Shown here piece by piece: positions 907 through 64,000 of a stretch of DNA of 64,000 nucleotides; position 1 is the first letter of the stretch, and every line of letters begins with the position of its first letter. The translations under genes and the position numbers were made by a program. Below the pieces are notes generated by a model. The model ran no database searches and was not told the DNA's origin. It was given only the letters and a program-made list of their open reading frames with translations. Source of the stretch: Chthoniobacterales bacterium (GTDB taxonomy: Bacteria > Verrucomicrobiota > Verrucomicrobiia > Chthoniobacterales > Chthoniobacteraceae); assembly GCA_038239865.1 (NCBI GenBank), contig JBBSEI010000013.1, positions 923 to 64,922 on the forward strand, in the 5' to 3' direction.

Positions 907-910
907 CGAA

Positions 911-1330: not shown

Positions 1331-1448
1331 CGAGGGAAGGACAAACTATCCGCCATTCCACGATAACTGCCGCCCCGCACGAGAGCCGTTCATTTCCCCC
1401 CCCAAAAAAAAACTGCACCTCCCCGCCGATGGCCGGCACGCCGAGGCA
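1331..1448. repeat. 117-bp direct repeat, copy B (downstream of vapBC)
   Basis: Same sequence family and orientation as 461..577. The central ~20 nt has diverged into a C/A homopolymer tract (CCCCCCCCAAAAAAAAA). Confidence 0.85.
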
Positions 1449-2557: not shown

Positions 2558-3156
2558 CGGGGGCGCAGGGCCAGCAGGGCTTCGCGGGCGCGGGTGAGGA
2601 ATTGCGGCTTGGCCTCGCCCGGCGCGAGCCGCAGCGGTTCGCCGAAGGTGACGGTGCAGAGCATCGGCACGGGGAGCACTTCGCCTTTCGGGAGGACGCG
2701 GTTGAGATTTTCGATGAAGACGGGCACGAGCGCGACTTGCGGCTGCGCCTTGGCGAGGTGGAAAAGTCCGGGCTTGAACGGATTCACTTCGCCGTCGGGG
2801 TTGCGCGTGCCCTCGGGGAAAATGATCAGCGAGTCGCCGTCGCGCAGCGCATCCAGCATGGGCACGAGCGGATTATTTTCCCGCGTGACGGCGTGCCGCT
2901 CAATGAAGACCGCGTGGAAGACGCGGCGCGCAAGCCATTCGCGGATGCCGCCTTTTTCCCAATAATCGCGCGCACCGACGGGGCGCGTCCTGCGCCGAAT
3001 TTCCGGAGGCATCACCGCCCACAGCAGGATGAGGTCGAGGTTGCTCGTGTGGTTGGCAAAATACACGCGCTGCTCGGCGACGGGCGCGCAGCCCTGCCAG
3101 CGTGTGCGCACGCCAGTGAGGAGACGGGTGAACGATGCGAGGAGCGAAGCCGTCAT
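2554..3156 (-). CDS. plsC: 1-acyl-sn-glycerol-3-phosphate acyltransferase
   Basis: Internal Met of ORF 2554..3636(-) (MTASLLASF...). Has the HxxxxD-type NHTSNLD box and the FPEGTR box. Shares an ATGA overlap with the upstream gene at 3153-3156. Confidence 0.85.
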   Translation of the reverse strand: MTASLLASFTRLLTGVRTRWQGCAPVAEQRVYFANHTSNLDLILLWAVMPPEIRRRTRPVGARDYWEKGGIREWLARRVFHAVFIERHAVTRENNPLVPMLDALRDGDSLIIFPEGTRNPDGEVNPFKPGLFHLAKAQPQVALVPVFIENLNRVLPKGEVLPVPMLCTVTFGEPLRLAPGEAKPQFLTRAREALLALRPR

Positions 3157-13597: not shown

Positions 13598-13787
13598 AGG
13601 GCGGGAAAGTAATCGATCTCTCCAGCGGCGCGAGTCCGGAGCGCACCGGCGCGGTCCGGTCCGCTGCACTTTTACCCCGTGCATGCGCTCGTGGAGGTGG
13701 CGCACCCACGCCTGCTTCCCGCGGCATTCGCCCTGCCGTCGCTCGTCGCGCTCGCCCTGCGGATCAGGGATCGATCATCCGCCGCGA

Positions 13788-25963: not shown

Positions 25964-28648
25964 TCACTCCTCCAATCGGCCGACGGTGTTCAGGCACCGC
26001 GTGACGAGTGCCGTCCAGCCGGTCTGATGGCTCGCGCCGAGTCCGCGGCCCGTGTCGCCGTCGAAGTATTCGTGGAACCACACGAGGTCGCGCCAATGCG
26101 GGTCGGTGGCGAGGCGTCCGGAAAGGGCGTCGTCGCCGTGGCAGGGGCGGCGTCCGTTTTCACCGGGGAGAAAAAGTTGCGTGAGGCGGCCCGCGAGTTC
26201 GGCGGAGATTTGCGTGAGGTTCAGCATTTTTCCCGAGCCGAGCGGGAACTCCAACTGCACGGTGTCGCCGTAGAAATGGTCGTAGCGTTCGAGGGCTTCG
26301 AGCAGGAGATAGTTCAGCGGGAACCACACTGGTCCGCGCCAGTTTGAGTTGCCGCCCCACATGCCGTCGGTGCTTTCGCCGGGCGTGTATTGGATGCAAA
26401 TGTGGCCGCCTTCCGCGAGGTAGCAAAACTCGGCGTCGCGGTGCGCGCGGGACAGCGAGCGGATGCCGTGCGGCGAGAGAAATTCCGCATCATCGAGCAG
26501 CCGCCGCAGCACGCGCAGGAGGCGCGGCTTGCTCGGGATCGCGAGCAGCCGCATCTCGTTCCCGTCGGTGCCAGTGCGCTCCATGTAGCTCGCGTGCTGG
26601 GCGATTTCGGGACGGTTATCGAGGAACCACCGCATGCGTTTGCGGAAGCCGGGCAGCGAGCAGATCACATTTTGATCGAGCACCGTCACGGCCAGCAGCG
26701 GCACGAGGCCCACGAGCGATCGGACTTTCAGCGGTGCCGATGCGCCGCCGGCCTGCCGGATGTGGTCGTAGTAAAATCCGTCCTCCTCGTCCCAAAGTCC
26801 GGTGCCATTGAGCGTGTTGATCGCTTCGGCGATCTCGACGAAGTGCTCAAAAAATTTGCTCGCGATGTCCTCGTAGGCGGGTCGCGTCTTCGCGAGTTCC
26901 AGCGCCATCGAGAGCATGGTCGTGCAGTAAAATGCCATCCACGCCGTGCCGTCCGCCTGCTCGAGGGTGCTGCCATTTGGCAGTGGCTTCGAGCGGTCGA
27001 AGAGCCCGATATTGTCCATGCCGAGAAAGCCGCCGCCGAAGACGTGCCGGCCCTCCGCGTCCTTGCGGTTCACCCACCAGGTGAAATTGAGCAGCAGCTT
27101 TTGAAAGCAGCGCTCGAGAAAGAACGTGTCGCGCCGTCCGCGCTCGCCGGTGATTTTGTACACGCGCCAGCAGGCCCAGGCGTGGACGGGCGGATTCACG
27201 TCGGAGAAATTCCACTCATACGCGGGCAGTGCGCCGTCGGGCCGCATGTACCATTCTCGGAGCAGCAGCAGGAGCTGGCCCTTCGCAAAATACGGATCCA
27301 CGCGGCACATCGGGATCATGTGAAAGGCGAGGTCCCACGCGGCGTACCACGGGTATTCCCACTTGTCCGGCATGGAGATGAGGTCGGCGTTGTAGAGGTG
27401 CGGCCAGTCGGCGTTGCGCGTCTGCGCGTGGTGCGCGGGCGGGCGCGGCTGCGTCGGATCGCCGGCGAGCCAGCGGCGCACATCATAGTGGTAAAATTGC
27501 TTCGACCACAGCAGCCCCGCGTACGACTGGCGCAGGACATTTCGCTCCTCGTCGCCGAGGCGCGGCGCGGATTTCGTCGCGTAGAAAAGTCCCGCCTCCT
27601 CGCGCCGCGCGGCGAAGACCGCGTCGAAATCCGCGAACGCCGCCGCCGGCAAATCGAGCGCTGTGCCGAGGCGAAAGCGCAGCACTTTTCGTTCTCCTGC
27701 CGGCAGATCGACGACGCAGTGCGCGGCGCACTTCGTGCCGGTCTGCGCGGGATTCACGACAGCGGGCGTGCCGGCGATCACGTGATCATGAAAGGCGTCC
27801 TTCACAAACGGCTGCACATTCGGCGTGCCGAAAACGCGTGCCGTGTTCGTTTCATTCTCGGTGAAAATCACAGGCGCGTCTTCCTCGATCACCCAGCGGA
27901 AATTGCCGAGCGCAGCGTGCGCGGCCTCGACGCAATGCGGCCCGGTCTGCCGCAGCACGGGACGCTCGCTCCCGACGGACCAGCTCCACGTATTGCGAAA
28001 CCACAGCGTCGGCAGCACGTGCAGGCGAGCCGCGTTCGGCCCGCGATTCTCGATCGTGATGCGGATCAAAATGTCCTCCGGCGCGGCCTTCGCGTACTCG
28101 GCCGTGATGTCGAAATAGCGGTCGCCGTCGAACACGCCCGTGTCCGCCAACTCGTACTCGCGTTCGGTCGGCGCGCGGCGCGCATTCACCTCGCGCAATT
28201 TCGCGTACGGGAATTCCGCCTGCGGATATTTGTAGAGCGCACGCAGGTAGGACGAGGTCGGCGTCGCGTCGAGATACCAGTAGCACTCCTTCACGTCCTC
28301 GCCGTGCGGCCCCTCGCCATTCGCGAGGCCGAAGAGGCGTTCCTTTAAAATCGGATCGCGCCCATTCCACAGCGCCAGCGCGAAGCACAGCCGCGCCTGC
28401 CGGTCGCAGATGCCCATGAGCCCATCCTCGCCCCAGCGGTACGCACGCGAGCGCGCGTGCTCGAACGGAAAATAGCGCCACGCATTTCCATCGTCCGAAT
28501 AATCCTCGCGGACCGTGCCCCACTGCCGCTCGCTGAGATACGGGCCCCAGCGTTTCCAGTTCCCCTCGCGGTGCGCCTCCTCCTCGATCCGCCGGTGCTC
28601 GGGAGTCAGCGCGGACTGCGGATCGGCACCGTGATCGTCGGAAATCAT
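25964..28648 (-). CDS. GH63-like (MGH1-like) glucosidase family protein
   Basis: Starts at MISDDHGADP. The N-terminal block WKRWGPYLSERQWGTVREDYS..GNAWRYFPFEHARSRAYRWGEDG and the later (alpha/alpha)6-type blocks match my memory of bacterial proteins annotated as glucosidase. Confidence 0.7.
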   Translation of the reverse strand: MISDDHGADPQSALTPEHRRIEEEAHREGNWKRWGPYLSERQWGTVREDYSDDGNAWRYFPFEHARSRAYRWGEDGLMGICDRQARLCFALALWNGRDPILKERLFGLANGEGPHGEDVKECYWYLDATPTSSYLRALYKYPQAEFPYAKLREVNARRAPTEREYELADTGVFDGDRYFDITAEYAKAAPEDILIRITIENRGPNAARLHVLPTLWFRNTWSWSVGSERPVLRQTGPHCVEAAHAALGNFRWVIEEDAPVIFTENETNTARVFGTPNVQPFVKDAFHDHVIAGTPAVVNPAQTGTKCAAHCVVDLPAGERKVLRFRLGTALDLPAAAFADFDAVFAARREEAGLFYATKSAPRLGDEERNVLRQSYAGLLWSKQFYHYDVRRWLAGDPTQPRPPAHHAQTRNADWPHLYNADLISMPDKWEYPWYAAWDLAFHMIPMCRVDPYFAKGQLLLLLREWYMRPDGALPAYEWNFSDVNPPVHAWACWRVYKITGERGRRDTFFLERCFQKLLLNFTWWVNRKDAEGRHVFGGGFLGMDNIGLFDRSKPLPNGSTLEQADGTAWMAFYCTTMLSMALELAKTRPAYEDIASKFFEHFVEIAEAINTLNGTGLWDEEDGFYYDHIRQAGGASAPLKVRSLVGLVPLLAVTVLDQNVICSLPGFRKRMRWFLDNRPEIAQHASYMERTGTDGNEMRLLAIPSKPRLLRVLRRLLDDAEFLSPHGIRSLSRAHRDAEFCYLAEGGHICIQYTPGESTDGMWGGNSNWRGPVWFPLNYLLLEALERYDHFYGDTVQLEFPLGSGKMLNLTQISAELAGRLTQLFLPGENGRRPCHGDDALSGRLATDPHWRDLVWFHEYFDGDTGRGLGASHQTGWTALVTRCLNTVGRLEE

Positions 28649-28727
28649 GCGCGATGCTGTGCGCGAGATGCGTGTAATTTGCGAGCAACTTGTCGCGTCT
28701 GGAACGGTTCCAAGAAATCCATCGCCC

Positions 28728-31478
28728 ATGAAACTGCGCCACCTCCTCCCGCTCTCACTCGCCGCCACCGGCGCGCTCTGGGCCGCCATCGATCAGGAAA
28801 AGAAATCCGCTGAGGTGAAGCCCGCAGAGCCCTCCAGTCAGCCCGCCGCCGAGCCGAAGCCGACGACCGAACAACTCGACTTTTTCGAGAAAAAAATCCG
28901 GCCGGTGCTCGCGGAAAAATGCTACAAGTGCCACTCGGAAAAAGCGGCGAAAGTGAAGGGCGGCCTCGTGCTCGACACGCGCGAGGGCGCGCGGCGCGGC
29001 GGCGACAGCGGCGCGGCGGTCGTGCCGGGAAATCTCGACGACAGCATCCTCATTCAGGCCGTGCGCTACACGGACAAGGACTTCGCGATGCCGCCGGAAA
29101 AGAGCGGCGGCAAGCTGCCCGACGCGGTGATCAAGGATTTCGAGACGTGGGTGAAAATGGGCGCGGCCGATCCGCGCGAGGGGTCGTCCGCGGTGGCGAA
29201 AAAATTCAGCAAGGAGGACGCAAAAAACTGGTGGGCCTTCCAGCCGCCAAAGGCGCAGCCCGTGCCGCAGCCGAAGAACGCCGCGTGGGCGCACGGCGAT
29301 GCGGATCGTTTTCTCCTCGCGGCGCTGGAGGAGAAAAAGCTGAAGCCCGTCGGCGACGTGGAGCCTGCGACGCTGCTGCGGCGGATCTATTTTGATCTCA
29401 CCGGCCTCCCGCCGTCGCCGATCGATGTCGGCCAGTTTTTTGCCGACTGGAAAACGGCGAGCGCGAGCCCGCAGACCGCCTCCGCGCAGCAGCAGGCGGT
29501 GCTCGGCAAGTGGGTGGACAATCTGCTCGCCTCGCCGCAATTCGGAGAGCGGTGGGGCCGGCACTGGCTCGACGTCGCGCGCTATGCGGAGAGCAGCGGC
29601 AAGGATGTGAACATCGCCTTCCCGCACGCGTGGCGGTACCGCGACTACGTCATCGCGGCGTTCAATCACGACAAGCCGTACGATCAATTTTTGCGCGAGC
29701 AACTCGCGGGCGATTTGCTCCCGGCATCGAGCGATGCGCAGAAGGCCGAGCATCTCATCGCGACCGGTTTTCTCGCGATCGGACCGAAGGGTCTGAACGA
29801 ACAAAATCCGCGGCAGTTCTGCCTCGATCTCGCGGACGAGCAGGTGGACACGGTCTCGCAGGCGATGCTCGGGCTCACGATTTCCTGCGCGCGCTGCCAC
29901 GACCACAAATTCGATCCGATCTCGCAGCGCGAGTACTACGGGCTGGCGGGCATTTTTCTGAGCACGGACACGCTCATCGGCACCGCGAGCGGGATCCAAA
30001 ACCGGCACGCGACCGACCTCATCGATCTGCCGTCGGGGACCGCGACGACGGGCAAGACCATCCTGCCCGCCGATCTCGAGAAGATGAAAAAGCGGCTCGA
30101 TGATTTGAAAAAGGAGCAGCGCGAATTTTTTGCCGCGCGCTTCAACGCCGGGAAGGGGCCGGCCACGCCGCCGGAGGGAAACCAACTGCAGCGCTTCCTG
30201 ATCGTGGCCACGCAGGCCGGCGCGCTCGAGGCGCAGATCAAAAGTGTGGATGATTCCGGCCACGCGAAGGCGCTGGCGATGGGCGTGAAGGATCTGCCGA
30301 AGACGGCGCAGAGCGGCCTCGGTCGCATGGGCGAATTTATGCGCCGCGGCCCGCAGGCGCGGCTCGGCCGCCCGCAGGAATTTGCGTCCGTCCGCGACAG
30401 TGCGCTCTACGCGCGCGGCGAGGCGGACAAGCCGACGGACAAAGTGCCGCGGAGCTTCCCCGCGGTGCTCACGCCGGGGGCTGGTGTGGACATTCCCGCG
30501 ACGGAAAGCGGACGCCGGGAACTCGCGGAGTGGATGACTTCGCCGGCGAATCCGCTGACGTCGCGCGTGATCGTGAATCGCATCTGGCACGCGCTTTTCG
30601 GCCGCGGGATCGTGGAGAGCGTGGATAATTTCGGCACGACCGGGAAGCAGCCGACGAATCAGGCGCTGCTCGATTTTCTTGCGGTGAAATTCCAGACGTC
30701 CGCGGACAAGGGCGGCTACGGCTGGAGCGTGAAGAAGCTCGCGCGCGACATCGTGATGAGCCACGCGTACCAGCTTTCTTCGGACTACGAGCCAGGCGCC
30801 TTTGCCGCCGATCCGGAGAACGCGCTGCACTGGCGCATGAGCAAGCGCCGGCTCGATGCGGAGTGCATCCGCGACGCGATGCTCTCGGCGAGTCAGCAGC
30901 TCCAACTTTCCCCGCCGACCGCTTCGCTGATCGCGCAGGCGGGCGAAGGCCCGATCGGCGGGCCGCGTTTCCGCCCCGGAAATGGCGTCACGGAGGATCA
31001 GCTCACGAACAGCGGCGGCACCACGATGGTGCGCAGCGTGTACCTGCCGATCGCGCGCGACGTGCCGCCGGATGCGCTCGCGGTTTTCGATTTCAGCGAC
31101 GCGAGCCTCGTGACGGGCGCGCGCGACTCGACCAATGTGCCCGCCCAGGCGCTCTTCCTTTTGAACAGCGACATGGTCGCCGCCGCTTCGCGCAAGCTCG
31201 CGGATCGCGTGATGACGGCGTATCCCGCCGGCCCCACCGGTGGCGTGAGTGCGAATCTCGATCAGCGGCTGGCGATCGCATTCTGGATCACGCTCGGCCG
31301 CTCGCCGACGCCGAACGAACGCACGGCGGCGTGGAATTTTTTCCAGAAATTCCCGAGCAACTGGAGCAAGGGAGACAAGTCCTCGCCCGGAATGCGCGAC
31401 GCGGAAGACGTGAAGGCCGCGTGGACAAGCTTCTGCCGCGCGCTGTTTGCGACGTCGGATTTCCGCTATCTCAACTAG
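28728..31478 (+). CDS. PSCyt1/DUF1549/DUF1553 domain protein
   Basis: Starts at MKLRHLLPLSLAA (signal peptide). Has the CYKCHS heme-like motif with FFEKKIRPVL, a DUF1549 block (YFDLTGLPPSP, GERWGRHWLDVARYAES), CARCHDHKFDPISQ, and a DUF1553 C-terminus. Confidence 0.9.
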   Translation: MKLRHLLPLSLAATGALWAAIDQEKKSAEVKPAEPSSQPAAEPKPTTEQLDFFEKKIRPVLAEKCYKCHSEKAAKVKGGLVLDTREGARRGGDSGAAVVPGNLDDSILIQAVRYTDKDFAMPPEKSGGKLPDAVIKDFETWVKMGAADPREGSSAVAKKFSKEDAKNWWAFQPPKAQPVPQPKNAAWAHGDADRFLLAALEEKKLKPVGDVEPATLLRRIYFDLTGLPPSPIDVGQFFADWKTASASPQTASAQQQAVLGKWVDNLLASPQFGERWGRHWLDVARYAESSGKDVNIAFPHAWRYRDYVIAAFNHDKPYDQFLREQLAGDLLPASSDAQKAEHLIATGFLAIGPKGLNEQNPRQFCLDLADEQVDTVSQAMLGLTISCARCHDHKFDPISQREYYGLAGIFLSTDTLIGTASGIQNRHATDLIDLPSGTATTGKTILPADLEKMKKRLDDLKKEQREFFAARFNAGKGPATPPEGNQLQRFLIVATQAGALEAQIKSVDDSGHAKALAMGVKDLPKTAQSGLGRMGEFMRRGPQARLGRPQEFASVRDSALYARGEADKPTDKVPRSFPAVLTPGAGVDIPATESGRRELAEWMTSPANPLTSRVIVNRIWHALFGRGIVESVDNFGTTGKQPTNQALLDFLAVKFQTSADKGGYGWSVKKLARDIVMSHAYQLSSDYEPGAFAADPENALHWRMSKRRLDAECIRDAMLSASQQLQLSPPTASLIAQAGEGPIGGPRFRPGNGVTEDQLTNSGGTTMVRSVYLPIARDVPPDALAVFDFSDASLVTGARDSTNVPAQALFLLNSDMVAAASRKLADRVMTAYPAGPTGGVSANLDQRLAIAFWITLGRSPTPNERTAAWNFFQKFPSNWSKGDKSSPGMRDAEDVKAAWTSFCRALFATSDFRYLN

Positions 31479-36761: not shown

Positions 36762-37579
36762 GTGCGCGGCCGAAATTTTCCGTCGGCAGCGTGACCTTCG
36801 GCGGCGCGGCACCGGTGTTCATGCTCGGGCCGTGCGTGATCGAGTCGGAGGAATTCGTGTGGAAAATGGCGCGCGCGCTGAAGGCGATCTGCACGGAGGT
36901 CGGCGCGCAGTTTATTTTCAAGGCGAGCTACGACAAGGCGAACCGCACGAGCGGAAAAAGCTACCGCGGAATCGGGCTGAAGGACGGCTGCACGATCCTC
37001 GCGAACATCGGCCGCGAACTCGGCGTGCCGGTGACGACCGACGTGCATTCGCCCGAGGACGCGCGCGCGGCGGCGGAGTGGATCGACCTTTTGCAAATCC
37101 CCGCGTTCCTCTGCCGGCAGACCGATCTCATCGTCGCCGCCGCGGAGACGGGTCGCGCGGTGAATGTGAAGAAGGGGCAGTTCCTCGCGCCGTGGGACAT
37201 CAAGAACATCGCGGAAAAATTGCGCGCGTCCGGCTGCGAGCGGTTCATGTTCACGGAGCGCGGGACGACCTTTGGCTACAACAATCTCGTGGCCGACATG
37301 CGCTCGCTTTACTGGATGCGTGAACTCGGCTGCCTCGCGATTTTCGACGCGACGCACAGCGTGCAGCGGCCCGGCGGGGCGGGGGACAAGACGGGCGGCG
37401 ACGGCATCCTCGCGCCGGTGCTCGCGCGCGCGGCGGTCGCGGCGGGATGCGACGGAGTTTTCATCGAGACGCACAAGGATCCCTCGCAGGCGCTGAGCGA
37501 CGGGCCGAATCAGATTCCGCTGGCGCAAGTCCCGGCGCTGCTCAAAACTCTGATCCAAATCCATGGCCTTGTTTCGTAA
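36758..37579 (+). CDS. kdsA: 3-deoxy-8-phosphooctulonate synthase
   Basis: 3' part of ORF 36362..37579. The in-frame TTG at 36758 overlaps the DUF1844 stop (TTGA). Blocks GPCVIESEE, FKASYDKANRTS, LQIPAFLCRQTDL and DATHSVQ. Confidence 0.9.
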   Translation: MSARPKFSVGSVTFGGAAPVFMLGPCVIESEEFVWKMARALKAICTEVGAQFIFKASYDKANRTSGKSYRGIGLKDGCTILANIGRELGVPVTTDVHSPEDARAAAEWIDLLQIPAFLCRQTDLIVAAAETGRAVNVKKGQFLAPWDIKNIAEKLRASGCERFMFTERGTTFGYNNLVADMRSLYWMRELGCLAIFDATHSVQRPGGAGDKTGGDGILAPVLARAAVAAGCDGVFIETHKDPSQALSDGPNQIPLAQVPALLKTLIQIHGLVS

Positions 37580-38153
37580 TTCCCGGCTCGTCCTGCTCGC
37601 GGCAGTGCTTGGGATGATTGCAGGCAGCGCGGCGGGGGCCGACGGCGCGCCGGCAGCCGCGGCAAAGGCACCGGCGGAAGCCGCTGCGCCAGCGGCAGCG
37701 GACCCGAAAAAGGATCGGCTCGATCTCCCGGTGCCAAAGGGGCAGCCGCAAAAAGGCCTCCGCATCCCGATCTACAGCCCGGAAGGAAAGTTGATGATGA
37801 GTTTCCAAATCGGCGTCGCCGAAGTGGTGGACGCGGACCACATCAAGATGGGCGAACTGCGGCTGGAGACGTTCAAGGAAAACGGGGAGCACGAGTTTGA
37901 CATCGATCTGCCGGATTCTGTCTTCAACGCGAAGACGAAGGAGCTGACCTCGAACGCGCATGTGATCATCAAGCGGCACGATTTTGAAATTTCCGGCAAC
38001 AGCATGACTTTTAACACCGACACGAAGGTGGGCACCTTCGGCAACGGCGTGAAGATGGTGATCTACGACGCGCGGACGGCGGTCGGCGAAGAGGAAAAAA
38101 AATCAGAAATCCCAGCCATCGAAATCAAGCCCGTGCAGGAGGAAAAGAAATGA
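37563..38153 (+). CDS. lptC: LptC-like LPS export protein
   Basis: N-terminal membrane anchor LVLLAAVLGMIAGSAAG followed by a beta-rich domain. Sits between kdsA and lptA, with an ATGA overlap with lptA. The call rests mainly on context. Confidence 0.55.
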   Translation: MALFRNSRLVLLAAVLGMIAGSAAGADGAPAAAAKAPAEAAAPAAADPKKDRLDLPVPKGQPQKGLRIPIYSPEGKLMMSFQIGVAEVVDADHIKMGELRLETFKENGEHEFDIDLPDSVFNAKTKELTSNAHVIIKRHDFEISGNSMTFNTDTKVGTFGNGVKMVIYDARTAVGEEEKKSEIPAIEIKPVQEEKK

Positions 38154-52866: not shown

Positions 52867-53044
52867 CTCCCGCTTTCTGTCCGGTTATTTGTGAAAGATG
52901 GCATCAGGCACGCGATGGCGCGACCGCGCGGACTGTCGCCGCAATCGCACCGCGCGCGACGGGGCGACTGCCGGAAAATTTCAGAGCCGCGAGGATGGGG
53001 CATCCTCGCGGCTCTTTCTTGGGGAGGGGACTGCGATGGGGAAA

Positions 53045-53356
53045 TCAGCGCTCGAAAATGAAGCGCAGCAGGCCTCCGAACGGAGGTGCGGGACGCAGCG
53101 GCGGCGGCGGCGGGGAATAGTACGCGGGCGGCGGTGCGAAGCGCCGCGGTTCCGGCACGATCACGACCGGTCCTCGATACCGGCGATGCTCGCCCCACGC
53201 GCCGGGGCCGTCGGGAAAATAACCGGGGCCGGGGCCGAATTCGCGTCCGTAAGGTCTGGGGCCGGGAGGCTGCTGGAAGGGGCCTTGCGCGTGGGCGGTG
53301 AGTCCGCCGGCTGCGAGTGTCAGTGCGAGGGTGGCGGCTGCGAGGAGCATTTTCAT
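53045..53356 (-). CDS. small secreted Pro/Gly-rich hypothetical protein
   Basis: Internal Met of ORF 53045..53941(-). MKMLLAAATLALTLAAGGLTAHA signal peptide followed by PGPRPYGREFGPGPGYFPDGPG...PPPAYYSPPPPP. The low-complexity sequence makes the call tentative. Confidence 0.4.
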   Translation of the reverse strand: MKMLLAAATLALTLAAGGLTAHAQGPFQQPPGPRPYGREFGPGPGYFPDGPGAWGEHRRYRGPVVIVPEPRRFAPPPAYYSPPPPPLRPAPPFGGLLRFIFER

Positions 53357-53461
53357 AACGGTAATTTCGACGGCCCGTGCGCGCGGGTATTCAAAATGTT
53401 CTCGGCGCAATTTGCCGCTGGAGGACCGGTTTTCCGCTGGTATGCTTTTCCACTCTCCATC

Positions 53462-56400
53462 ATGAAAATCTCCCTCTCCTGCTCCGGAAATTTGGCAACT
53501 GCACCGGTGGCAATTCCCCTGGCGCTGCTGGCGTTCGCCGCGATGAGTTCCGCGCTCGCGCAGGAAATCACGAAGGAGCAGGGCGAGTTTTTCGAATCCA
53601 AAATCCGGCCGGTGCTCGCCGACACGTGCTACCGCTGCCACAGCGCGGACGCGGGAAAAAGCAAGGGCGGCCTCACGCTCGATTCGCGCGATGCGATGCT
53701 GAAGGGCGGCGACACGGGTGCGTCCGTCGTGCCAGGCGATCCGGCAAAATCGCTGCTCATCAAAGCGATCACGTATTCCGATCCCGACTTGCAGATGCCG
53801 CCTTCGAGCGCGGGCGGGAAGCTCAGCGATGTGCAGATCGCCGACCTCAGCATGTGGGTGAAAATGGGCGCGCCGGTGCCGGCGAATGCCACCGCGGTGA
53901 AGACAAAACTCAGCGGCATGACGGACAAGGCGCGTGGGCACTGGTCATATCAGCCGGTGAAAAATCCGAAGGTGCCGCTCAACAAAAACCAGCAGTGGTG
54001 CCGCACGCCGGCGGACTGTTTTGTCCTGCAAAAAATCGAGGCGGCAGGGATGCTGCCCTCGCCGGACGCGGACAAGGAGACGCTGCTGCGGCGCGCATTT
54101 TACGACCTCCTCGGGCTGCCGCCCTCGCCGCAGGAGATCGAGACTTTCCTCGCGGACAAATCGCAGGAGGCATGGGCGCGGGTCGTGGATCGGCTGCTCG
54201 CCTCGCCGCACTACGGCGAACGCTGGGGCCGCCACTGGCTCGACACCGCGCGCTACAGCGACACCGCGGGCGCAAATGTGAACGGCACCGAGTACCGCTA
54301 CGCGCACGCGTGGACGTATCGCGACTGGGTCATCAATGCGATCAATGCGGATATGCCGTACGACAAATTCGTGACGCATCAGCTCGCGGCGGATCTGCTG
54401 CCGAAGGATCAGCAGGGCCGGAATGGCGAGAATCTCGCAGCGCTCGGCTTCATCACCGTCGGCGAGCGATTCGGAAATCCGAACGACCTCATCAACGAGC
54501 GCATCGACACCGTGAGCAAGGCGATGCTCGCGATGACCGTCTCGTGCGCGCGCTGCCATGATCACATGTTCGATCCGATTTCGCAGAAGGACTACTATGC
54601 GCTGCACGGCGTCTTCTCGAGCATCACGGAGCCGAATGTGAAGCCGCTCATCGGCACGCTGCCGCCAGCGGATCTCCTCGCCGACTACTCGAAGAAGGAG
54701 GCGGAAGTGAAAAAGGAAATCGCGAGCGCGTACTACGAGTCCATCGGTTTTTTCAACCAGGGCTTCCGCCTGAAATCGCCGCAGTATCTCGAACTCCTCA
54801 CACTCTCCCGCGACCCGATCAGCATCACGGACAAGAGCTCGCCGTACACGAATTTCCGCCTCGCGAACAAACTCGACGACGACGTCGCGCGCCGCGTCGA
54901 GCCGCGCACGCGGAAAAAGGACGACACCGTTTTCGGGCCTCTCGCGATGCTGTCGGCGATCAAGCCGGAGGAGTTCGCTGCGAAGTCGCCGGCGATCATC
55001 GCGCAGGCGCAGACCGGAATGTTGCCCGGCACGAAGAAGCCGATCAACCGCCTCGTCGCGATCGCCTTCCGCGGCGCGAAGCCGCAGTCGATCAAGTCGA
55101 TCAAAGATGTCTGGCAGATCTACGACAACGCCTTCGCGATGGTCGCGCCGAAGTCCGCAATTTGGCTCGACGAGATGGCCGTGAACTCCAGCGACAACGT
55201 GGTCGGCGTGGATGCCGCGATGGCGGAGTTGCTGCAAATTCCCTTCGACGTGAAGCCCGGCGGCACGCTCTCGATCGCGGATTTCCGCCAGCTCATCGAC
55301 CGCCTGCCAAACAACCGCAAGCGCGACGCACAGGGCGCGCTCGTGCGGCTGAACGAACTCCAGCTCACGCATCCCGGCGCGCCCGCGTACGCGATGATCG
55401 TGACCGACAATGCGAAGCCGACCGACTCGCCCGTCTTCATCCGCGGTCAGGCGAATACGCGCGGCGAAATCGTCCCGCGGCGTTTCCTGGACGTGCTTTC
55501 ACCCGAGGGAAAAGGCGTGCCTTTCAAACAGGGCAGCGGCCGCCTCGAACTCGCGAAGTGCATCGCTGACAAGGCAAACCCGCGCACCGCGCGCGTGATG
55601 GTGAACCGCGTGTGGATGCATCATTTCGGCGAGGGTCTCGTCTCCACGCCGGACGATCTCGGCACGATGGCCGAGCTGCCCACGCATCCCGAACTGCTCG
55701 ACTACCTCTCGAATTACTTCACCGAAAACGGCTGGAGTCTGAAAAAATTGCACCGCCTGATCATGCTCTCGCGCGTCTATCAGGAGAGCAGCCACGTCAT
55801 CGCCGAATATCAGGATAAGGACCCGTACAACCGCCTGCTCTGGCGCGCCAATGTGCGGCGGCTCGACTTCGAGTCCGTGCGCGATTCGCTGCTCTCCATG
55901 AGCGCCCAGCTCGACGGCACGCTCGGCGGCAAGCCCGTGAACATCACCGAGGAACCGTACAGCTCCCGCCGTTCCGTGTACGGCTACATCGATCGCGGGA
56001 ATCTCCCCGAACTCATGGCCCATTTCGATTTTTCAAAACCGGAAATGGCGAACTCCAAGCGCACCGCGACCATCGTGCCGCAGCAGGCGCTCTTTTTGAT
56101 GAACAGCCCGATGGCCGTGGACGTCGCACGACGCATCGTGAACCGCTCCGAGTTCACCAGCGCCCGCGACGACCTCGGGCGCATCTCCGCGCTGTACCGG
56201 ATCATTTTCCAGCGCATGCCCGTCAGGAATTTGTCGAAGGAAAATCCGAGGGATGAGTGGAAGATGGGCCTCGAATTCGTGAAGATCGAATCGCAGGACT
56301 ACGACGCAAATCACTTCGCCGCAAAGAACGTGAAGCAGGGCGGCGGCAACCGCATGGACGCCCGCGCGGCGATCAAGAACGACGGCTTCCGCATCCACCG

Positions 56401-56473
56401 CAGCGCGCTGAACCCATGGGAAACCTACGCGCAGGCGCTGCTGTTTTCGAACGAGGCGGCGTATGTGAACTGA
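53462..56473 (+). CDS. PSCyt1/DUF1549/DUF1553 domain protein
   Basis: ATG at 53462 (MKISLSC...ALLAFAAMSSALA). FFESKIRPVLADTCYRCHS, YDLLGLPPSP, GERWGRHWLDTARYSDT and CARCHDHMFDPISQ, with a DUF1553 C-terminus. The 188 codons upstream in the ORF track are noise. Confidence 0.9.
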   Translation: MKISLSCSGNLATAPVAIPLALLAFAAMSSALAQEITKEQGEFFESKIRPVLADTCYRCHSADAGKSKGGLTLDSRDAMLKGGDTGASVVPGDPAKSLLIKAITYSDPDLQMPPSSAGGKLSDVQIADLSMWVKMGAPVPANATAVKTKLSGMTDKARGHWSYQPVKNPKVPLNKNQQWCRTPADCFVLQKIEAAGMLPSPDADKETLLRRAFYDLLGLPPSPQEIETFLADKSQEAWARVVDRLLASPHYGERWGRHWLDTARYSDTAGANVNGTEYRYAHAWTYRDWVINAINADMPYDKFVTHQLAADLLPKDQQGRNGENLAALGFITVGERFGNPNDLINERIDTVSKAMLAMTVSCARCHDHMFDPISQKDYYALHGVFSSITEPNVKPLIGTLPPADLLADYSKKEAEVKKEIASAYYESIGFFNQGFRLKSPQYLELLTLSRDPISITDKSSPYTNFRLANKLDDDVARRVEPRTRKKDDTVFGPLAMLSAIKPEEFAAKSPAIIAQAQTGMLPGTKKPINRLVAIAFRGAKPQSIKSIKDVWQIYDNAFAMVAPKSAIWLDEMAVNSSDNVVGVDAAMAELLQIPFDVKPGGTLSIADFRQLIDRLPNNRKRDAQGALVRLNELQLTHPGAPAYAMIVTDNAKPTDSPVFIRGQANTRGEIVPRRFLDVLSPEGKGVPFKQGSGRLELAKCIADKANPRTARVMVNRVWMHHFGEGLVSTPDDLGTMAELPTHPELLDYLSNYFTENGWSLKKLHRLIMLSRVYQESSHVIAEYQDKDPYNRLLWRANVRRLDFESVRDSLLSMSAQLDGTLGGKPVNITEEPYSSRRSVYGYIDRGNLPELMAHFDFSKPEMANSKRTATIVPQQALFLMNSPMAVDVARRIVNRSEFTSARDDLGRISALYRIIFQRMPVRNLSKENPRDEWKMGLEFVKIESQDYDANHFAAKNVKQGGGNRMDARAAIKNDGFRIHRSALNPWETYAQALLFSNEAAYVN

Positions 56474-56796: not shown

Positions 56797-58512
56797 ATGA
56801 AAACCAAACCGTTCCTCACCCTCATAGCCCTGCTGCTCGGATGCAGTGTGCATGCGCAAAACCCGCCGCCGCCAGCCGCTCAACCACCTGCGGCTCCGGC
56901 AGCAAAGGCAGATGCGGCGGCTGAGATCGGAAAGCTGCAGGAAGGCTACAACACAGCAATGGAGGCCAATGCCGGCGAGAATGCGAAATGGATCGAGGGA
57001 CTGGAGAAATGGTATTTCGATGGCCTCGACAAATTGAAGGCGGATCGCGCAAAGGCGGGTGATCTCGACGGCGCGGTGCTGGTGAAGACCGAGCGGGATC
57101 GGGTCACCATGCACACGGAGACGACCCCGGAGCAGATCAAGGCGATGCCCGCCGCCCTGCGCACGTTGCGCGGCACGTATGAAGGCTCGCTCAAGAGGAT
57201 CATCGAGGAAACCGGGAAGAAGAATCTGCCCGTTAGCCGGAAATTCCTTGCGGACCTTGAGGCATTGCAGAAGCGCATCACTGTGACGGGGAACATTGAG
57301 CAGGCCCTCATCGTGAAGGAGGAGAAGGAGCGCTTTGCACATCAGTTTGCCGAAAGTGCCACCGTACCGTCGGCTATTACCGAGAATCCCGGCTCTGCGA
57401 AGACTGCAATTCTCCCAGTGCAAAAGCCCGCTGCACCTCGCACAGATTTTGTTGAGCATATCTCCGCCCTTACCAACGGGAAGACAGGCGCTCCGATCCT
57501 GCTAAAGAAAAAAGAAACCATGACGACGAAGGCGAAATTCAAACCTCCGGTGGAGATTCTTATCGAAGCCAAGACGAATTCCACCAATCTCCGGCTTGGC
57601 TATGCGGCAGATGAAGTCATCTTTAACTGGGAAAACTCCATGGACGAACTGCGCGTTGACGGAGGCCCTGCAAACAAAATGCATCAGAAGAAGGGTGGAC
57701 TCATTCCGACGAACACCTACGTGACTATTCGCTGGGTGGTGACGCCGAAGATGCAGTCCATCTATGTGGACGGAGAGAGGCGATTCGAGCACCACGGAGA
57801 CTATTCGGGCATTGACAAGCCTATCAGCGTATCCAGCGCGAGCGGCTCAATCGTCACGGTCAAATCTGTCAAAGTAAGGCAACTCCCTCCCGAAGTCGCG
57901 GTATCTGCCGAGAAAGCAAACCCACCCGCGACTGCTCACGCAGACATCCCCTTAAAGAACGTGAAGGCAGGACAGGAGAAAGGTTTCGACGTCAGCGGCA
58001 TCCCTTCTTCCGCCGCCAGCAGCATCCCTTCAAAAGCCGCAGGGCCGCAGACCAAGGTTCAAATTACCACGGAGAAAAAGCCGGGGGCAGTCGCAAACAC
58101 TGCTGTCGGTCGCGCAGGCTCGCAGACCAAAAGCGCGGAAAATATCCTGTATGTTTTGACGTTGAAAAACATCTCGCCGAACGATCTGCCGGGACTGACC
58201 GTGGATTATCTTCTCTTTGTCGAGAGACAGAGGCTCGGGGAAGTGAAAAACGAACCCTCGAAGGTGGAGCGGATTGCCGCCTCGAGAAAAGTTGAGGTGC
58301 TTACCCGGGAAAATCCTCAGGTGGTGACGACAAGCGAGGTCCCGCTGAATGTGGAGAATCTCGTCGGACATTACCACTATAGGAACGGTGGGCGCATCCG
58401 GGCGGAGGATTCAGTGATCGGCGTTTGGGTCCGTGTGACGCAAGATGGGCAGCTCATCGGCGAGTATGCCAACCCGCCGACCGTTACGAAACGTGGTTGG
58501 GGCGGCAAGTAG
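56797..58512 (+). CDS. hypothetical lipoprotein (571 aa), paralog 1
   Basis: MKTKPFLTLIALLLGC lipobox. The N-terminal helical region is shared with 58836..59846 (AGDLDGAVLVKTERDR, IEQALIVKEEKERF). The central beta-sandwich-like block ends ...IVTVKSVKVRQL. Followed by its own terminator. Confidence 0.75.
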   Translation: MKTKPFLTLIALLLGCSVHAQNPPPPAAQPPAAPAAKADAAAEIGKLQEGYNTAMEANAGENAKWIEGLEKWYFDGLDKLKADRAKAGDLDGAVLVKTERDRVTMHTETTPEQIKAMPAALRTLRGTYEGSLKRIIEETGKKNLPVSRKFLADLEALQKRITVTGNIEQALIVKEEKERFAHQFAESATVPSAITENPGSAKTAILPVQKPAAPRTDFVEHISALTNGKTGAPILLKKKETMTTKAKFKPPVEILIEAKTNSTNLRLGYAADEVIFNWENSMDELRVDGGPANKMHQKKGGLIPTNTYVTIRWVVTPKMQSIYVDGERRFEHHGDYSGIDKPISVSSASGSIVTVKSVKVRQLPPEVAVSAEKANPPATAHADIPLKNVKAGQEKGFDVSGIPSSAASSIPSKAAGPQTKVQITTEKKPGAVANTAVGRAGSQTKSAENILYVLTLKNISPNDLPGLTVDYLLFVERQRLGEVKNEPSKVERIAASRKVEVLTRENPQVVTTSEVPLNVENLVGHYHYRNGGRIRAEDSVIGVWVRVTQDGQLIGEYANPPTVTKRGWGGK

Positions 58513-59901: not shown

Positions 59902-60398
59902 TCACGCGAGCAGCGGGCGGATGACTTCGCCATGCACGTCGGTGAGGCGGCGATCGATGCCGTTGTGGCGGAAGGTAAGCTTCGTGTGATCAATGCCGAG
60001 CAGGTGCAGGATCGTCGCGTGGATGTCCCACACTTGCGTGGGACTTTTCCGATCGAGCGGCTTGTAGCCCCACTGGTCGCTTTCGCCGTGCGTGATGCCG
60101 CCCTTGATGCCACCGCCTGCGAGCCAGTTGGTGAAAACGTACGGGTTGTGATCGCGCCCTTTGCCGCCTTGCGAGGAGGGCATGCGGCCGAATTCCGTCG
60201 TCCACAAAATGACGGTGTCGTCGAGCATCCCGCGTTGTTTCAAATCCTGGATGAACGCCGCGCAGCCGCGCGCCATGCCGAGGGAGAGCGGGCCATGATC
60301 GCGCGCGATGTCCTCGTGCGAATCCCAGTTGCGGCGCGGAAAGCCGTTGTCGGTGTGCAGGCTGCGCGGCGGATGAAAGTATGGCGCGCAGTTTTACT
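59902..60398 (-). pseudogene. DUF1501 protein gene, 3' remnant (last ~165 codons)
   Basis: Reading back from ORF 59902..60276(-) in the same frame gives APYFHPPRSLHTDNGFPRRNWDSHEDIARDHGPLSLGMARGCAAFIQDLKQRGMLDDTVILWTTEFGRMP...[42 protein letters not shown]. It is preceded by TAA and by unrelated, more AT-rich sequence. The N-terminal two-thirds, including the twin-arginine region, is absent. Confidence 0.75.
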
Positions 60399-60491
60399 CA
60401 TTGCTGACAACTCTCCGCAGCGGCTGGGACGCTTTGCTGACATCGTGCGGTCATGTTCCGTGGCATTGCCCTGCCACGATCCTTTCGCTCC

Positions 60492-62525
60492 ATGAAAATA
60501 ACCGTCTCCCTGCTCCCGCTGATCTTCACCCTCGCCGGACCGATCTGCGCACTCGCGCACGACTCCGGCGCGGCGCACGGCGATCCACGTCTTTCCGCGC
60601 GCAATTTTTCCGCACAGCTTCCGATGGAAATGCTGGAAATCCTGCGCGATGGAAAAGGCATCCCTCCGGCGGACAGCGATGCGATCAAGGCTCTGACTGC
60701 GCGCTATCTTTCGCGGCGTTCGAACCGTCCGGCTGATGCCGGCAGCAGCGCGCCGTCCGCATTCACGCGCAGGCAGGCGGAGAGTGCGACTGCCGCGGAT
60801 GTCGCCGCCCCCCAGTGGCAGTTCGTGACCACGCCGTTCAACCCGCTCGATGCATTTGCGGATGTGCCGTTCACGCTGACTTCATACACGGCTCCCACGG
60901 GGAATGGCGCGCTGATGGCTGCGTCGTTCACGCCCTTCAAGCCGAAGGTGCGATTCTATTGGGATGGCACGACTTTTTACGAGGAGTCAGATAACACTCC
61001 CGATCCGGCGATGATGCCGAACCTCATGGTGGGCATCACTTCGTGGCAGCAGCAGGTGCCGGTGCCAGCCGCGTATTTTGCGGGGACGACGAATCCGGAG
61101 AACAGCACCAGCTCGCTCGGCTACGGTCAACCGAACTACTGGCGGCTGCCGCTCGTGCCGGTGCCTTCGGCGTCGCCGATTCCGATTTCGGCGGGGAATT
61201 TCCAGCGCGGCGCGGTGGCGCTCGCGGCGAATGGGATCGCGATTTTCAATCCGAAGAACAACACCGGCGCGGCCTCGTATCAAATCGGCGAGCTCGATGC
61301 GTATGGCGGGCACTGCGGTCTCGCGGATGATTACCACTACCACATCATCCCGACGCATCTGCTGAGCGCATTCGGCGGCGTGTTGAGCAATGACAAGCCC
61401 GTCGCGTGGGCGCTCGATGGCTATCCGATTTACGGCTATGTGGAGCCGGACGGCACAGCGCGGCAGGCGCTCGATGCGGACGGCGGGCACGACATCGGCA
61501 GCGGCTGGGGCTATCACTACCACGCGATCGGCACGACGACGGTGGACGCGACGCACCCGTATGGCACGCCGCAGTCGCCATACTTGATGAGTAACTTCCA
61601 CGGCACCGTGGTGAATTTCGGCGGGCAGGTGGACGGGCAGCCGGAGGTCGGGCCGATCCGCGCGTCGGGCACGGGCGGCTACACGGCGCAGCCGGTGAGC
61701 GGCGCGAGCATTGTCGCGTTCAAAAATCCCGTCGCGCTCAAATTTGTCGGCAGTGATCTGGCGGAAGACACGGCAGGCACGCCGTCGCCGGATTCGTATC
61801 TCATGCGCGTGAGCATCGCAGGCACGACTTACGACGAGTGCTGGAAAATCAACCGCAGCGTGAATCCGCGCACGCTCACGGTCACATGGCGTCTCGCGGG
61901 CGCGACGACCACGACGACCTACACCCCCAACGCCACGGGCGACCGCCTCACCGCATACCCGATGGCCGCGTGGAGTGAGACAAAGCTGCCGGACACGAGC
62001 CAGACGCTCAACGTCCCAACCGCGCCCTTCGGCCAGGACTCCGACTACACCATCAATGCGCAATCTTTCACCGACAACGGCAACAGCACCATCACCGACA
62101 ATGTTACCGGACTAATGTGGCAGAAAACGGACAATGGTGAGTCCACATGGGAGAACGCGGTGGCCAATGCAGCAAGCATCACCACCGGCGGCTACACCGA
62201 CTGGCGGCTGCCGACTCCGGCGGAGGCGCTCAGCATCATCAATCACAACAACTCCAACCCGGCGCTGAACACGACTTACTTTCCCAGCAACGGCGCGGGT
62301 GCCGCGGACTATTGGTGGACGACCGACATCTATGGCACCAGCACGACAAACGTGTGGTGCACGAACGCCGGCGGCGGCGTGGGCGCGAAGCCAAAGACGG
62401 AAACGATCAGCGCTGGCGGAGTGCTGCGCTATAGCGCGCGCTACGTGCGCGGAAAAAAGGCACGAGCGCGCACAACTACCTCAACAACCTCGACAGCACG
62501 ATCACCGACACGGACACTGGCCTGA
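60492..62525 (+). CDS. secreted YHYH-domain plus DUF1566 (Lcl C-terminal-like) protein; zero-frame product
   Basis: ATG at 60492 (MKITVSLLPLIFTLAGPICALA). Two YHYH motifs (DAYGGHCGLADDYHYH, DADGGHDIGSGWGYHYH). DUF1566 block TDNVTGLMWQKTD...GGYTDWRLPTPAEAL...RYSARYVRG. The zero frame ends 22 codons after an A_AAA_AAG heptamer. Confidence 0.8.
   Translation: MKITVSLLPLIFTLAGPICALAHDSGAAHGDPRLSARNFSAQLPMEMLEILRDGKGIPPADSDAIKALTARYLSRRSNRPADAGSSAPSAFTRRQAESATAADVAAPQWQFVTTPFNPLDAFADVPFTLTSYTAPTGNGALMAASFTPFKPKVRFYWDGTTFYEESDNTPDPAMMPNLMVGITSWQQQVPVPAAYFAGTTNPENSTSSLGYGQPNYWRLPLVPVPSASPIPISAGNFQRGAVALAANGIAIFNPKNNTGAASYQIGELDAYGGHCGLADDYHYHIIPTHLLSAFGGVLSNDKPVAWALDGYPIYGYVEPDGTARQALDADGGHDIGSGWGYHYHAIGTTTVDATHPYGTPQSPYLMSNFHGTVVNFGGQVDGQPEVGPIRASGTGGYTAQPVSGASIVAFKNPVALKFVGSDLAEDTAGTPSPDSYLMRVSIAGTTYDECWKINRSVNPRTLTVTWRLAGATTTTTYTPNATGDRLTAYPMAAWSETKLPDTSQTLNVPTAPFGQDSDYTINAQSFTDNGNSTITDNVTGLMWQKTDNGESTWENAVANAASITTGGYTDWRLPTPAEALSIINHNNSNPALNTTYFPSNGAGAADYWWTTDIYGTSTTNVWCTNAGGGVGAKPKTETISAGGVLRYSARYVRGKKARARTTTSTTSTARSPTRTLA
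62453..62459 (+). other. A_AAA_AAG heptamer in phase for -1 frameshifting (or the site of an indel)
   Basis: Zero-frame codons are GGA AAA AAG at 62451-62459. The -1 frame reopens from 62459 (GGC ACG AGC ...) and stays open to the window end. Confidence 0.35.
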
Positions 62526-64000
62526 TGTGGACGCAGCTCCCCGCTGCGGCGATGAACTGGAACTCGGCGCTGACCTATGCGGAAAATCTCAACCTCGGCG
62601 GTTACACCGACTGGCGGCTGCCGAACGTGAAGGAACTCGAGACACTGACCGACCACACGCTCGCCACCGCGACGAGCACTACCGGCATCAAGCCGAGCAT
62701 CAACCGCACGATGTTTGCGAAGACGCTGACGAGCTGCGCGACGACGAGCGGCAGCACGACGGTCACCTGCGCCGACACGACCGGCCTGCTCGTTGGAATG
62801 CCCATCGTGGATCAGTCGGACATCGCCGGTGCCTACCTCTCGAACACGACCGCGCCCACGGTCACGGTCATCACTAACTCGACCACCTTCACCATCAGCG
62901 CCGCCGCCACCGCCACCGGCTCGGGTCTCACGCTGAAAGCCCTCGTGCCGCCGACCGCGTACTGGAGTTCCAGCATCGTGAAGGCTGGGACGCTCACGCA
63001 GGCGTGGCTCGTTGAGTTTGGCATCAATAGCACCGTGCCCGCCGCGAGCGGCCCGACGCGCAACACGCAAGGCATCATCAGCTACGAAATCTTCGCCTCG
63101 ACCTATCCCGTCTTCGCCGTGCGCAGCGCTTCGGTCACGACGCAGATTGCTGTTTCTCAAGGCGGCACAGCACTCACCGATGCCGTCAGCACCGTGGCCT
63201 ATGGCAACGTCAATGTCGGCAGCACATTGTCGAAGACTTTCACGATCAGCAAAACGGGTGCCTCCGCGCTTACCATCTCCGGCGTGACCATTGATGGCAC
63301 GAACGCCGCGAACTTCACCGTGACGACAGCGCCCGCCACCACCATCGCCGGCGGCGGCAGCACGACGATGGACGTGCTGTTCAGCGCGGCCAGTTCAGGC
63401 GCGAAGGTCGCAGCGATCCACATCGCGAGCAGCGACACCTCGGTGGGTGCTGCGTTTGACATCGCACTTAGCGGCACCGGCTACGTCGCGCCGCCGACGA
63501 TCACCGCAGTTGCGAATCAAACGACGATGCGGAACAACGCGACGAGCACCCTCGCCTTCACCGTCGGCGATGCGCAGACCGCTGCGGCGAGCCTCACGCT
63601 CAGCGCCACGTCGTCGAACACCACGCTGGTGCCAGTTGCGAACATCGTCTTCGGTGGCAGCGGGGCCAGCCGCACTGTGACCGTGACGCCAGCGATCGGG
63701 CAGACGGGCACAGTCACGATCACCGTCACTGTGAGCAACGGGTCGAGCACGACGAGCATGACCTTCACGCTCACGGTGAGCCCGCCGAACATCCTGATTA
63801 TCATCGCCGACGACTACGGCCTCGATGCGAGTTCGCTCTACTCCAGTTTGCTCGGCAACAGTGGCACCGCGACTTTTCCACCGACGCCGAATATCGCGTC
63901 GCTCGCGGCGAATGGCGTGCAATTCAATCACGCTTACACTTACACGGTCTGCTCGCCCACGCGCTCTGCCATATTAACCGGACGCTATGGCTTTCGCACG
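62459..64000 (+). CDS. -1-frame continuation: second DUF1566 domain, choice-of-anchor-D/Ig-like domains, sulfatase domain (partial, runs off the window)
   Basis: Hand translation has no stops: GTSAHNYLNNLDSTITDTDTGLMWTQL...GGYTDWRLPNVKELETL...YGNVNVGSTLSKTFTISKTGASALTISGVTIDGTNAANFTVT...PPNILIIIADDYGLD...CSPTRSAILTGRYGFRT. It is absent from the ORF track because it has no stop inside the window. Confidence 0.75.

Follow-up and report, generated by a model that had tools for sequence, protein, structure and literature searches.

Towards the 3′ end of the window, the 64,000-nucleotide stretch of DNA that was analysed, two reading frames of the forward strand meet at a short A run (Table 1). The upstream ORF, the longest version of which begins at ATG 60453, has a signal-peptide-like N-terminus when read from ATG 60492 (MKITVSLLPLIF...), and the resulting product is 100% identical to the 677-residue protein P0003. 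Pfam matches assign to it a YHYH domain and a first Lcl_C/DUF1566 domain. From 62435 onwards the -1 frame has no stop up to the end of the window (64000), and it contains a second Lcl_C domain, HYDIN/VesB-like Ig sequence and the first 61 positions of the Sulfatase profile, with a region of no assigned domain between the second Lcl_C domain and the Ig-like domains. The run of six A residues spans 62453-62458 and is followed by G at 62459. A codon of ORF 60453..62525 begins at position 62451 (62451-60453 = 666 × 3), so that the codons GGA-AAA-AAG at 62451-62459 present an in-phase A_AAA_AAG heptamer. Beyond the junction the zero frame adds a tail of 22 out-of-frame codons (ARARTTTSTTSTAR) and ends at a TGA (62523-62525) that overlaps an ATG of the -1 frame at 62525-62527 (TGATG), which encodes the Met of a conserved GLMW motif. 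The heptamer, the zero-frame stop and the TAG that closes the -1 frame upstream are all found where the original prediction had placed them.

Table 1. Features at the junction of the two reading frames (window coordinates).
Feature	Position	Strand	Remarks
5′ part of the gene as now read	60492..62525	+	from ATG 60492, 677 aa
TAG closing the -1 frame on the upstream side	62432..62434	+	helps to confine the frame change to 62454-62461
GC-rich hairpin with the A run in its loop	62434..62473	+	-24 kcal/mol, z = -2.7
Putative lesion site	62451..62461	+	GGAAAAAAGGC (A6G2); Gly-Lys-Lys-Gly linker codons between the two Lcl_C domains
Same gene continued in the -1 frame	62459..64000	+	513 codons without a stop; runs off the window
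Premature zero-frame stop, TGA	62523..62525	+	22 codons past the heptamer

Comparison with relatives reveals that the two ORFs belong together. All 117 homologous proteins pass the junction in one frame and align to the -1-fused product with zero gaps, as with RYVRG-AKPTNGHNY against RYVRG-KKGTSAHNY in the fusion. Likewise, of the 100 homologous loci from genomes and metagenomes whose sequence extends across the junction, all are single-frame and none has a two-frame arrangement. In these Chthoniobacterales-like relatives the domains follow in the order signal peptide, YHYH, two Lcl_C/DUF1566 domains, Ig-like domains, sulfatase, BACON/fn3-like domains and a multicopper oxidase. The closest orthologue, P0121 (locus L001), is encoded by a single ORF and is a giant predicted secreted protein of 2925 aa; it shares 93% amino acid and 92.2% nucleotide identity with the window gene, and the upstream product is 93% identical to its N-terminus. 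The two homologous frames do not lie side by side by chance, since each is one half of the same gene.

At the junction itself, L001 reads GGAAAAAAAGGC (A7G2) and L152, a locus with 92.7% nucleotide identity, reads GGAAAAAAGGGC (A6G3), each in one frame, and the A6G2 tract of the window is one base shorter than both. The single frame of L152 encodes exactly the junction peptide predicted for the -1 fusion, RYVRGKKGTSAHNY, and that of L001 encodes the same peptide but for one S-to-N change. Beyond this small clade the A run is missing from the relatives, the corresponding codons at the site being GGC GCG AAG CCG (GAKP). The remaining indels between the window and L001 within the gene each net a multiple of three. 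The TAG at 62432-62434 and the conserved residues on either side confine the frame change to 62454-62461. The seamless linker that had been proposed for the -1 reading is thereby corroborated, as is the joining of the two ORFs at the A run; the relatives with a different run length and a continuous ORF (A7G2 and A6G3) support the alternative that had been offered of a 1-nt indel, by true mutation or assembly error, and they contradict a programmed -1 site of the dnaX/IS type, as do the 100 loci and 117 proteins. No match to the junction was found in JGI metagenomes when the length of the A run was allowed to vary, and a protein-guided scan of the same metagenomes with a 383-aa query gave nothing above 73% identity over the best segment.

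The locus is almost certainly one giant gene from which a single base has been lost, through mutation or assembly error, i.e., a non-programmed frameshift lesion, as judged from the comparison of sequences; an ordinary lesion or assembly error, and not recoding, is indicated because none of the 100 related loci has a break in the gene. The loss would have removed one nucleotide from the homopolymer in the codons of the Gly-Lys-Lys-Gly linker, which lies between the two Lcl_C domains, by a change of A7 to A6 or, equivalently and indistinguishably, of G3 to G2. As a consequence of such a loss the zero frame meets a stop 22 codons on, while the rest of the gene lies in the -1 frame. Removal of a base from GGA AAA AAA GGC or from GGA AAA AAG GGC necessarily leaves GGA AAA AAG GC, so that the slippery heptamer is a by-product of the deletion, and a -1 slip on it necessarily gives back the ancestral protein.

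The downstream frame shows no decay. The dN/dS ratio (omega) is 0.211 before the break and 0.217 after it. At conserved sites, the window gene and L001 have accumulated equal numbers of lineage-specific replacements, both downstream (6 versus 6) and upstream (11 versus 11). A search downstream of the break for relaxed selection or additional lesions found none, nor any stop in the 513 codons. Together these values argue against an old pseudogene, and the absence of decay implies that the deletion arose very recently or else is an artefact of assembly. The selection analysis does not separate an artefact from a very recent mutation or a translated frame; an intact and constrained downstream frame is also expected of a translated -1 ORF, and the selection results alone are thus compatible with use of the frameshift.

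Within the reading of a lost base, the chance that the consensus captured a genuine mutation of very recent origin, or a strain variant, appears to be about even. Were the deletion real, the truncated 677-aa protein would be the main product and slippage on A_AAA_AAG would be only adventitious; the heptamer is among the most shift-prone in bacteria, which makes some full-length product plausible in that case. Unstimulated heptamers in E. coli reporters shift at 2.1 to 10 times a background of 0.055% (PMC4066793). Just short of an even chance is an assembly or sequencing artefact, in which the organism would carry A7G2 or A6G3 with an intact ORF and the consensus would have dropped a homopolymer base. 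This would agree with a downstream frame that has no defect and is under as much constraint as the upstream part, and with the location of the lesion in a homopolymer within a GC-rich hairpin. Furthermore, a collinearity break lies approximately 100 nt upstream of the gene, with a join at about 60352 at a truncated DUF1501 fragment, and the source appears to be a MAG contig of 67,245 bp (P0003), too short for the whole ∼8.8-kb gene, which suggests that the assembly broke inside it. On the other hand, none of the 38 other A/T runs of at least 6 nt in the window breaks a gene, and a Pfam/PDB survey of approximately 40 other window ORFs found no second frame break, so that the assembly is not generally prone to homopolymer errors. 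This survey was used in place of a mechanical scan for homopolymers that fuse two long ORFs, which is uninformative in this 64% GC genome, its many matches being ordinary gene boundaries. A β-CASP/SNM1-like ORF at 12620-13774 on the reverse strand, suspected to be split, turned out to be complete when compared with Apollo/SNM1 structures.

The other explanations are far less probable. Phase variation, in which replication slippage in an A/G contingency tract would toggle a surface or secreted protein between its complete and its truncated form, is very unlikely, even though the three close relatives, the window included, display three tract states (A7G2, A6G3 and A6G2) and large exported proteins, of which the predicted product is one, are often phase-variable. 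The difference between A7G2 and A6G3 is a synonymous A/G substitution, the length differs in the window only, and all other relatives have no tract. Moreover, the tract is just 6-7 nt, which is short for efficient switching.

Programmed -1 ribosomal frameshifting at A_AAA_AAG, by which a 677-aa short form and a full-length fusion would be made in a set ratio as in dnaX or IS3, is still less probable, and the orthologues refute it for the most part. In its favour are the in-phase heptamer, the seamless linker that a -1 reading yields, and the purifying selection on the downstream frame; however, L001 and L152 are single-frame at the exact spot, no two-frame locus occurs among the 100, and the heptamer arises automatically from the deletion. 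Its presence in the window is also unremarkable: AAAAAAG occurs 8 times on both strands, versus 5.0 ± 2.2 expected, and since 11 of 100 shuffles reach 8 this number is no more than chance and the heptamer is not enriched. Stimulatory elements are equally lacking near the site. The 20 nt upstream (GCGCGCGCTACGTGCGCGG) contain no GGAGG, AGGAG or GAGG by direct reading, and thus no SD-like element, and the region 62460-62560, in which a stimulatory structure was sought, folds worse than its shuffles (-20.8 kcal/mol versus a mean of -24.6, z = +1.22). The GTGCGCG...CGCGCAC pairing around the A run is real, and the hairpin in Table 1, the sole stable one, is its extended version. It surrounds the site instead of lying 3′ of it, which is the wrong place for a -1 frameshift stimulator. 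Folding thus agrees with the original prediction that the only pairing encloses the site and that a downstream stem-loop is absent. Finally, two substitutions relative to L001 fall within 8 nt 3′ of the heptamer, indicating that there is no conserved 3′ element. A conserved downstream stimulator is rejected both by these substitutions and by the folding.

It is similarly improbable that the deletion is real and fixed and that A_AAA_AAG is a newborn recoding site giving a small, selected amount of the ∼2900-aa protein. An abundant truncated YHYH-DUF1566 form would then accompany the full-length protein, and the gene would be a 'pseudo-pseudogene' at its origin in a free-living verrucomicrobium. 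Least probable of all is a functional gene split, in which the 3′ part would be expressed by termination-reinitiation at TGATG (62523-62527), where the zero-frame stop overlaps the -1-frame ATG, or in which transcriptional slippage on the A run would restore the frame: this Met belongs to the conserved GLMW motif within Lcl_C domain 2, translation from it would give a product with neither signal peptide nor first domain strand, no relative is split at the junction (0 of 100 loci), and the A6 run is well under the length of about 9 or more on which bacterial RNA polymerase slips appreciably (reviewed in PMC5009743).

The preferred reading of a lost base is mainly a caution. Any 1-nt deletion within Lys-Lys codons (AAA AAR) creates an in-phase A_AAA_AAG and an automatically seamless -1 product, and such a pairing alone is therefore no evidence for recoding, the decisive test for which is conservation in orthologues. 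In annotation, the two ORFs are best treated as a single gene with a flagged frameshift, unless the consensus is corrected instead; the product of the merged gene is predicted to be a giant secreted protein that carries YHYH, DUF1566, Ig-like, sulfatase and multicopper oxidase domains.

The site resembles those of E. coli dnaX and of the IS3 family (IS911, IS3) in having A_AAA_AAG in the upstream phase and a -1 shift that yields a fused product. In dnaX and the IS3 family, stimulation comes from an SD-like element ∼10 nt before the heptamer and from a stem-loop or pseudoknot that lies 5-8 nt past it. Unlike those systems, which combine such stimulators with a conserved two-frame arrangement, the window site has neither stimulator and its relatives are single-frame. 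If the deletion is real, the site may resemble adventitious rescue, in which low-level unprogrammed -1 slippage on Lys-Lys codons could give a little full-length protein, although there is no sign of selection for slippage here. Adventitious or compensatory frameshifting is known from AAA-AAA in the pDEST17 attB1 site (PMC1851650), and compensatory frameshifting that partly rescues a nearby indel is known from G-run indels in the HSV thymidine kinase gene (reviewed in PMC5009743). Without stimulators, the efficiency to be expected from E. coli reporters is well below 1% (PMC4066793); the host here belongs to the Verrucomicrobiota. The closest likeness is to a homopolymer lesion, be it a young pseudogene or a consensus indel: a 1-nt difference from close orthologues is unique to the window, and one added base restores an ungapped alignment to every homologue. 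From an ordinary lesion of that type the locus does not differ in kind, its sole oddity being that what is left happens to be a strong slippery heptamer.

The frameshift feature is of an ordinary, already-known kind: a one-nucleotide indel is supported and programmed frameshifting is not. The sequence at the site reads ...CGC TAC GTG CGC GGA AAA AAG GCA CGA..., and the position of the A6 run relative to the codon start at 62451 makes GGA-AAA-AAG an in-phase A_AAA_AAG heptamer. This heptamer, the TGA that ends the zero frame after 22 low-complexity codons (ARARTTTSTTSTARSPTRTLA), the TAG that closes the -1 frame upstream and the domains of both frames are all present as the original prediction had them. 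By its count in the window the heptamer is in itself unremarkable, AAAAAAG occurring 8 times on the two strands against 5.0 ± 2.2 expected. The premature zero-frame stop shares bases with an ATG in the -1 frame (TGATG), which resembles a translational-coupling signal; it is simply an out-of-frame reading of CTG ATG TGG, the codons of Lcl_C's conserved GLMW motif.

Features of the window, in window coordinates
Feature	Position	Strand	Remarks
PIN-domain ORF	857-1321	+	
C8A9 double homopolymer (CCCCCCCCAAAAAAAAA)	1396-1412		Intergenic, PIN-domain ORF to CTP_transf_1 ORF; longest homopolymers in window
CTP_transf_1 ORF	1610-2872	-	
PSCyt1-PSCyt2-PSD1 (DUF1549/DUF1553) gene	28647-31478	+	Complete
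ORF, possibly lptC-like	37554-38150		Unassigned
A8 run	38095-38102		
PSCyt1-PSCyt2-PSD1 (DUF1549/DUF1553) gene	52895-56470	+	Complete
571-aa ORF	56797-58509		No Pfam match
DUF1501 fragment	59911-60359	-	C-terminal third only (Pfam profile positions 252-389 of 390)
Collinearity breakpoint	~60352		
Upstream ORF (zero frame)	60453-62525	+	YHYH + Lcl_C (DUF1566); Pfam
TAG	62432-62434		Closes -1 frame upstream
Hairpin	62434-62473		
-1 frame	62435 to window end	+	Second Lcl_C, HYDIN/VesB-like Ig domains, first 61 profile positions of Sulfatase; Pfam
A6 run	62453-62458		
TGA	62523-62525		Ends zero frame
TGATG	62523-62527		

By homology to the 2925-aa protein P0121, the gene product is a predicted giant exported multidomain protein, comprising, in order, a signal peptide, YHYH, two Lcl_C/DUF1566 domains, Ig-like domains and a sulfatase (SGSH_C), followed toward the C-terminus by BACON, fn3 and glucodextranase-B-like modules and a multicopper oxidase (Cu-oxidase_3 + Cu-oxidase_2). 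This architecture is widespread in freshwater Verrucomicrobiota and Planctomycetota MAGs. A search with the hypothetical -1-fused protein found 242 homologues, many of them single proteins of 1000-2000 aa with the same domain order. The local alignment crosses the junction in 117 of the 120 homologues retrieved, in all 117 without gaps against the fused product (homologues RYVRG-AKPTNGHNY-LNNLDGTITD, window RYVRG-KKGTSAHNY-LNNLDSTITD), which indicates that the window is one nucleotide short rather than two over. Because conserved residues flank both sides and a TAG stands at 62432, the frame change is confined to 62454-62461. Scans of one genome per species and of JGI metagenomes gave 150 further loci; those covering the junction number 100, all of them read through it in a single frame, and a two-frame junction occurs nowhere among them. 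Outside the small clade of the two closest loci, L001 and L152, the relatives have no A run at the junction, the usual codons being GGC GCG AAG CCG ACG.

P0121 belongs to the 90%-identity cluster of P0003, the 677-aa protein called from the zero frame. Along 1174 residues it is 93% identical to the fused product, with RYVRGKKGTNAHNY read in a single frame, and it is encoded by the Chthoniobacterales MAG GCA_038238025.1 (locus L001/L002), which has GCGGAAAAAAAGGCAC, i.e. A7, at the site. Over their common 3.65 kb the window and L001 are 92.2% identical, and the A-run indel is the sole frame-breaking one, all others being net multiples of three. L152, on an ENA metagenome scaffold with 92.7% nucleotide identity to the window, reads GGAAAAAAGGGCACGAGC (A6G3) in a single frame, giving the peptide RYVRGKKGTSAHNY, identical to the fusion predicted originally. 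The tract thus occurs in three states, A7G2 and A6G3, both intact, and A6G2 in the window, one base short; the lost base cannot be named, since A7G2 minus A and A6G3 minus G give identical strings. The one-nucleotide indel, listed as an alternative in the original prediction, is supported by this comparison, the relatives having one continuous ORF and L001 and L152 a different run length. A one-base deletion from GGA AAA AAA GGC or GGA AAA AAG GGC inevitably gives GGA AAA AAG GC, an in-phase A_AAA_AAG with the ancestral protein as its '-1 product', which makes the heptamer a by-product of the loss. The seamless linker is thus to be expected after any single-base loss in these codons and lends no weight to programmed recoding.

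L152 has its own 1-nt frame break at ~2838 (ENA ERZ28573554 scaffold_64906), ~250 codons upstream of the window's lesion position, where AFKNPVAL becomes AFKIMW...* and the gene is split into calls of 423 aa and 356+ aa; as this break differs from that in the window, the giant gene carries independent frame breaks in two of three close relatives. At ~7568 L001 has three extra copies of a 9-nt tandem repeat (CGTCGCGTT), 27 nt in all, for which L152 has no counterpart; they fall within the ORF on the histidine-kinase side, which lies upstream of the response regulator.

A genuine deletion of recent date, or a strain variant, has about an even chance of being the explanation. No second frame break was found in ~40 other window ORFs (Pfam/PDB survey), whose domain matches run end-to-end, and the window's other A or T runs of at least 6, 38 in number, leave every gene uninterrupted. 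Homopolymer errors are therefore not a general weakness of this assembly, a point mildly in favour of a real variant. Relaxed selection in the downstream frame, named originally as part of a possible refutation, was not seen: comparison of the window with L001 gives a dN/dS of 0.211 for 654 codons upstream and of 0.217 for 513 codons downstream, where the -1 frame is free of stops. When ten outgroup homologues were used to polarise the amino-acid differences, conserved sites upstream showed 11 replacements specific to the window and 11 specific to L001, and those downstream 6 and 6. Since constraint on the window lineage gives no hint of having relaxed, the deletion is either very recent or not present in the organism. 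An assembly artefact is about equally likely, if a shade under even: nothing disrupts the downstream frame, the homopolymer that holds the lesion is itself part of a GC-rich hairpin, the contig is inferred to end inside the ~8.8-kb gene (the P0003 contig, 67,245 bp, is too short for it), and collinearity breaks ~100 nt upstream of the gene.

This breakpoint is either a genuine rearrangement truncating the DUF1501 gene or a chimeric assembly join. DUF1501 loses its 5' part at the very point from which the window is collinear with L001 and L152; both have a divergently transcribed response regulator there instead. PSCyt1-PSCyt2-PSD1 genes usually have a DUF1501 gene next downstream. The first of the two in the window is followed by no full-length DUF1501-sized ORF, the second by the 571-aa ORF, and apart from the truncated fragment, on the opposite strand, the window has no DUF1501 sequence. 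The A8 run lies where the stop-to-stop extents of the possibly lptC-like ORF and an LptA-like ORF overlap, upstream of an LptB-like ABC ATPase and then hpf; judged by the Pfam matches, the reading frame is not broken there.

Selected recoding, phase variation or a functional split, all forms together, is very improbable. The programmed-frameshift reading finds no support in the single-frame orthologues or in the surroundings of the heptamer: the 100 nt 3' of it form less stable structure than shuffled sequence does (z = +1.22), a Shine-Dalgarno-like element is missing from the 20 nt upstream, and two substitutions between the window and L001 within 8 nt 3', one non-synonymous, leave no conserved 3' element. 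The sole stable hairpin (-24 kcal/mol, z = -2.7) is wrongly placed for a stimulator: the A run sits in its loop, and its stem would already be open by the time the ribosome arrives at the site. In E. coli reporters, stimulator-free heptamers reach only 2.1-10 times the 0.055% background (PMC4066793). Any slippage at the window heptamer would be adventitious and small, resembling the 'compensatory' frameshifting reviewed in PMC5009743 and the slippage at AAA-AAA in pDEST17 (PMC1851650).
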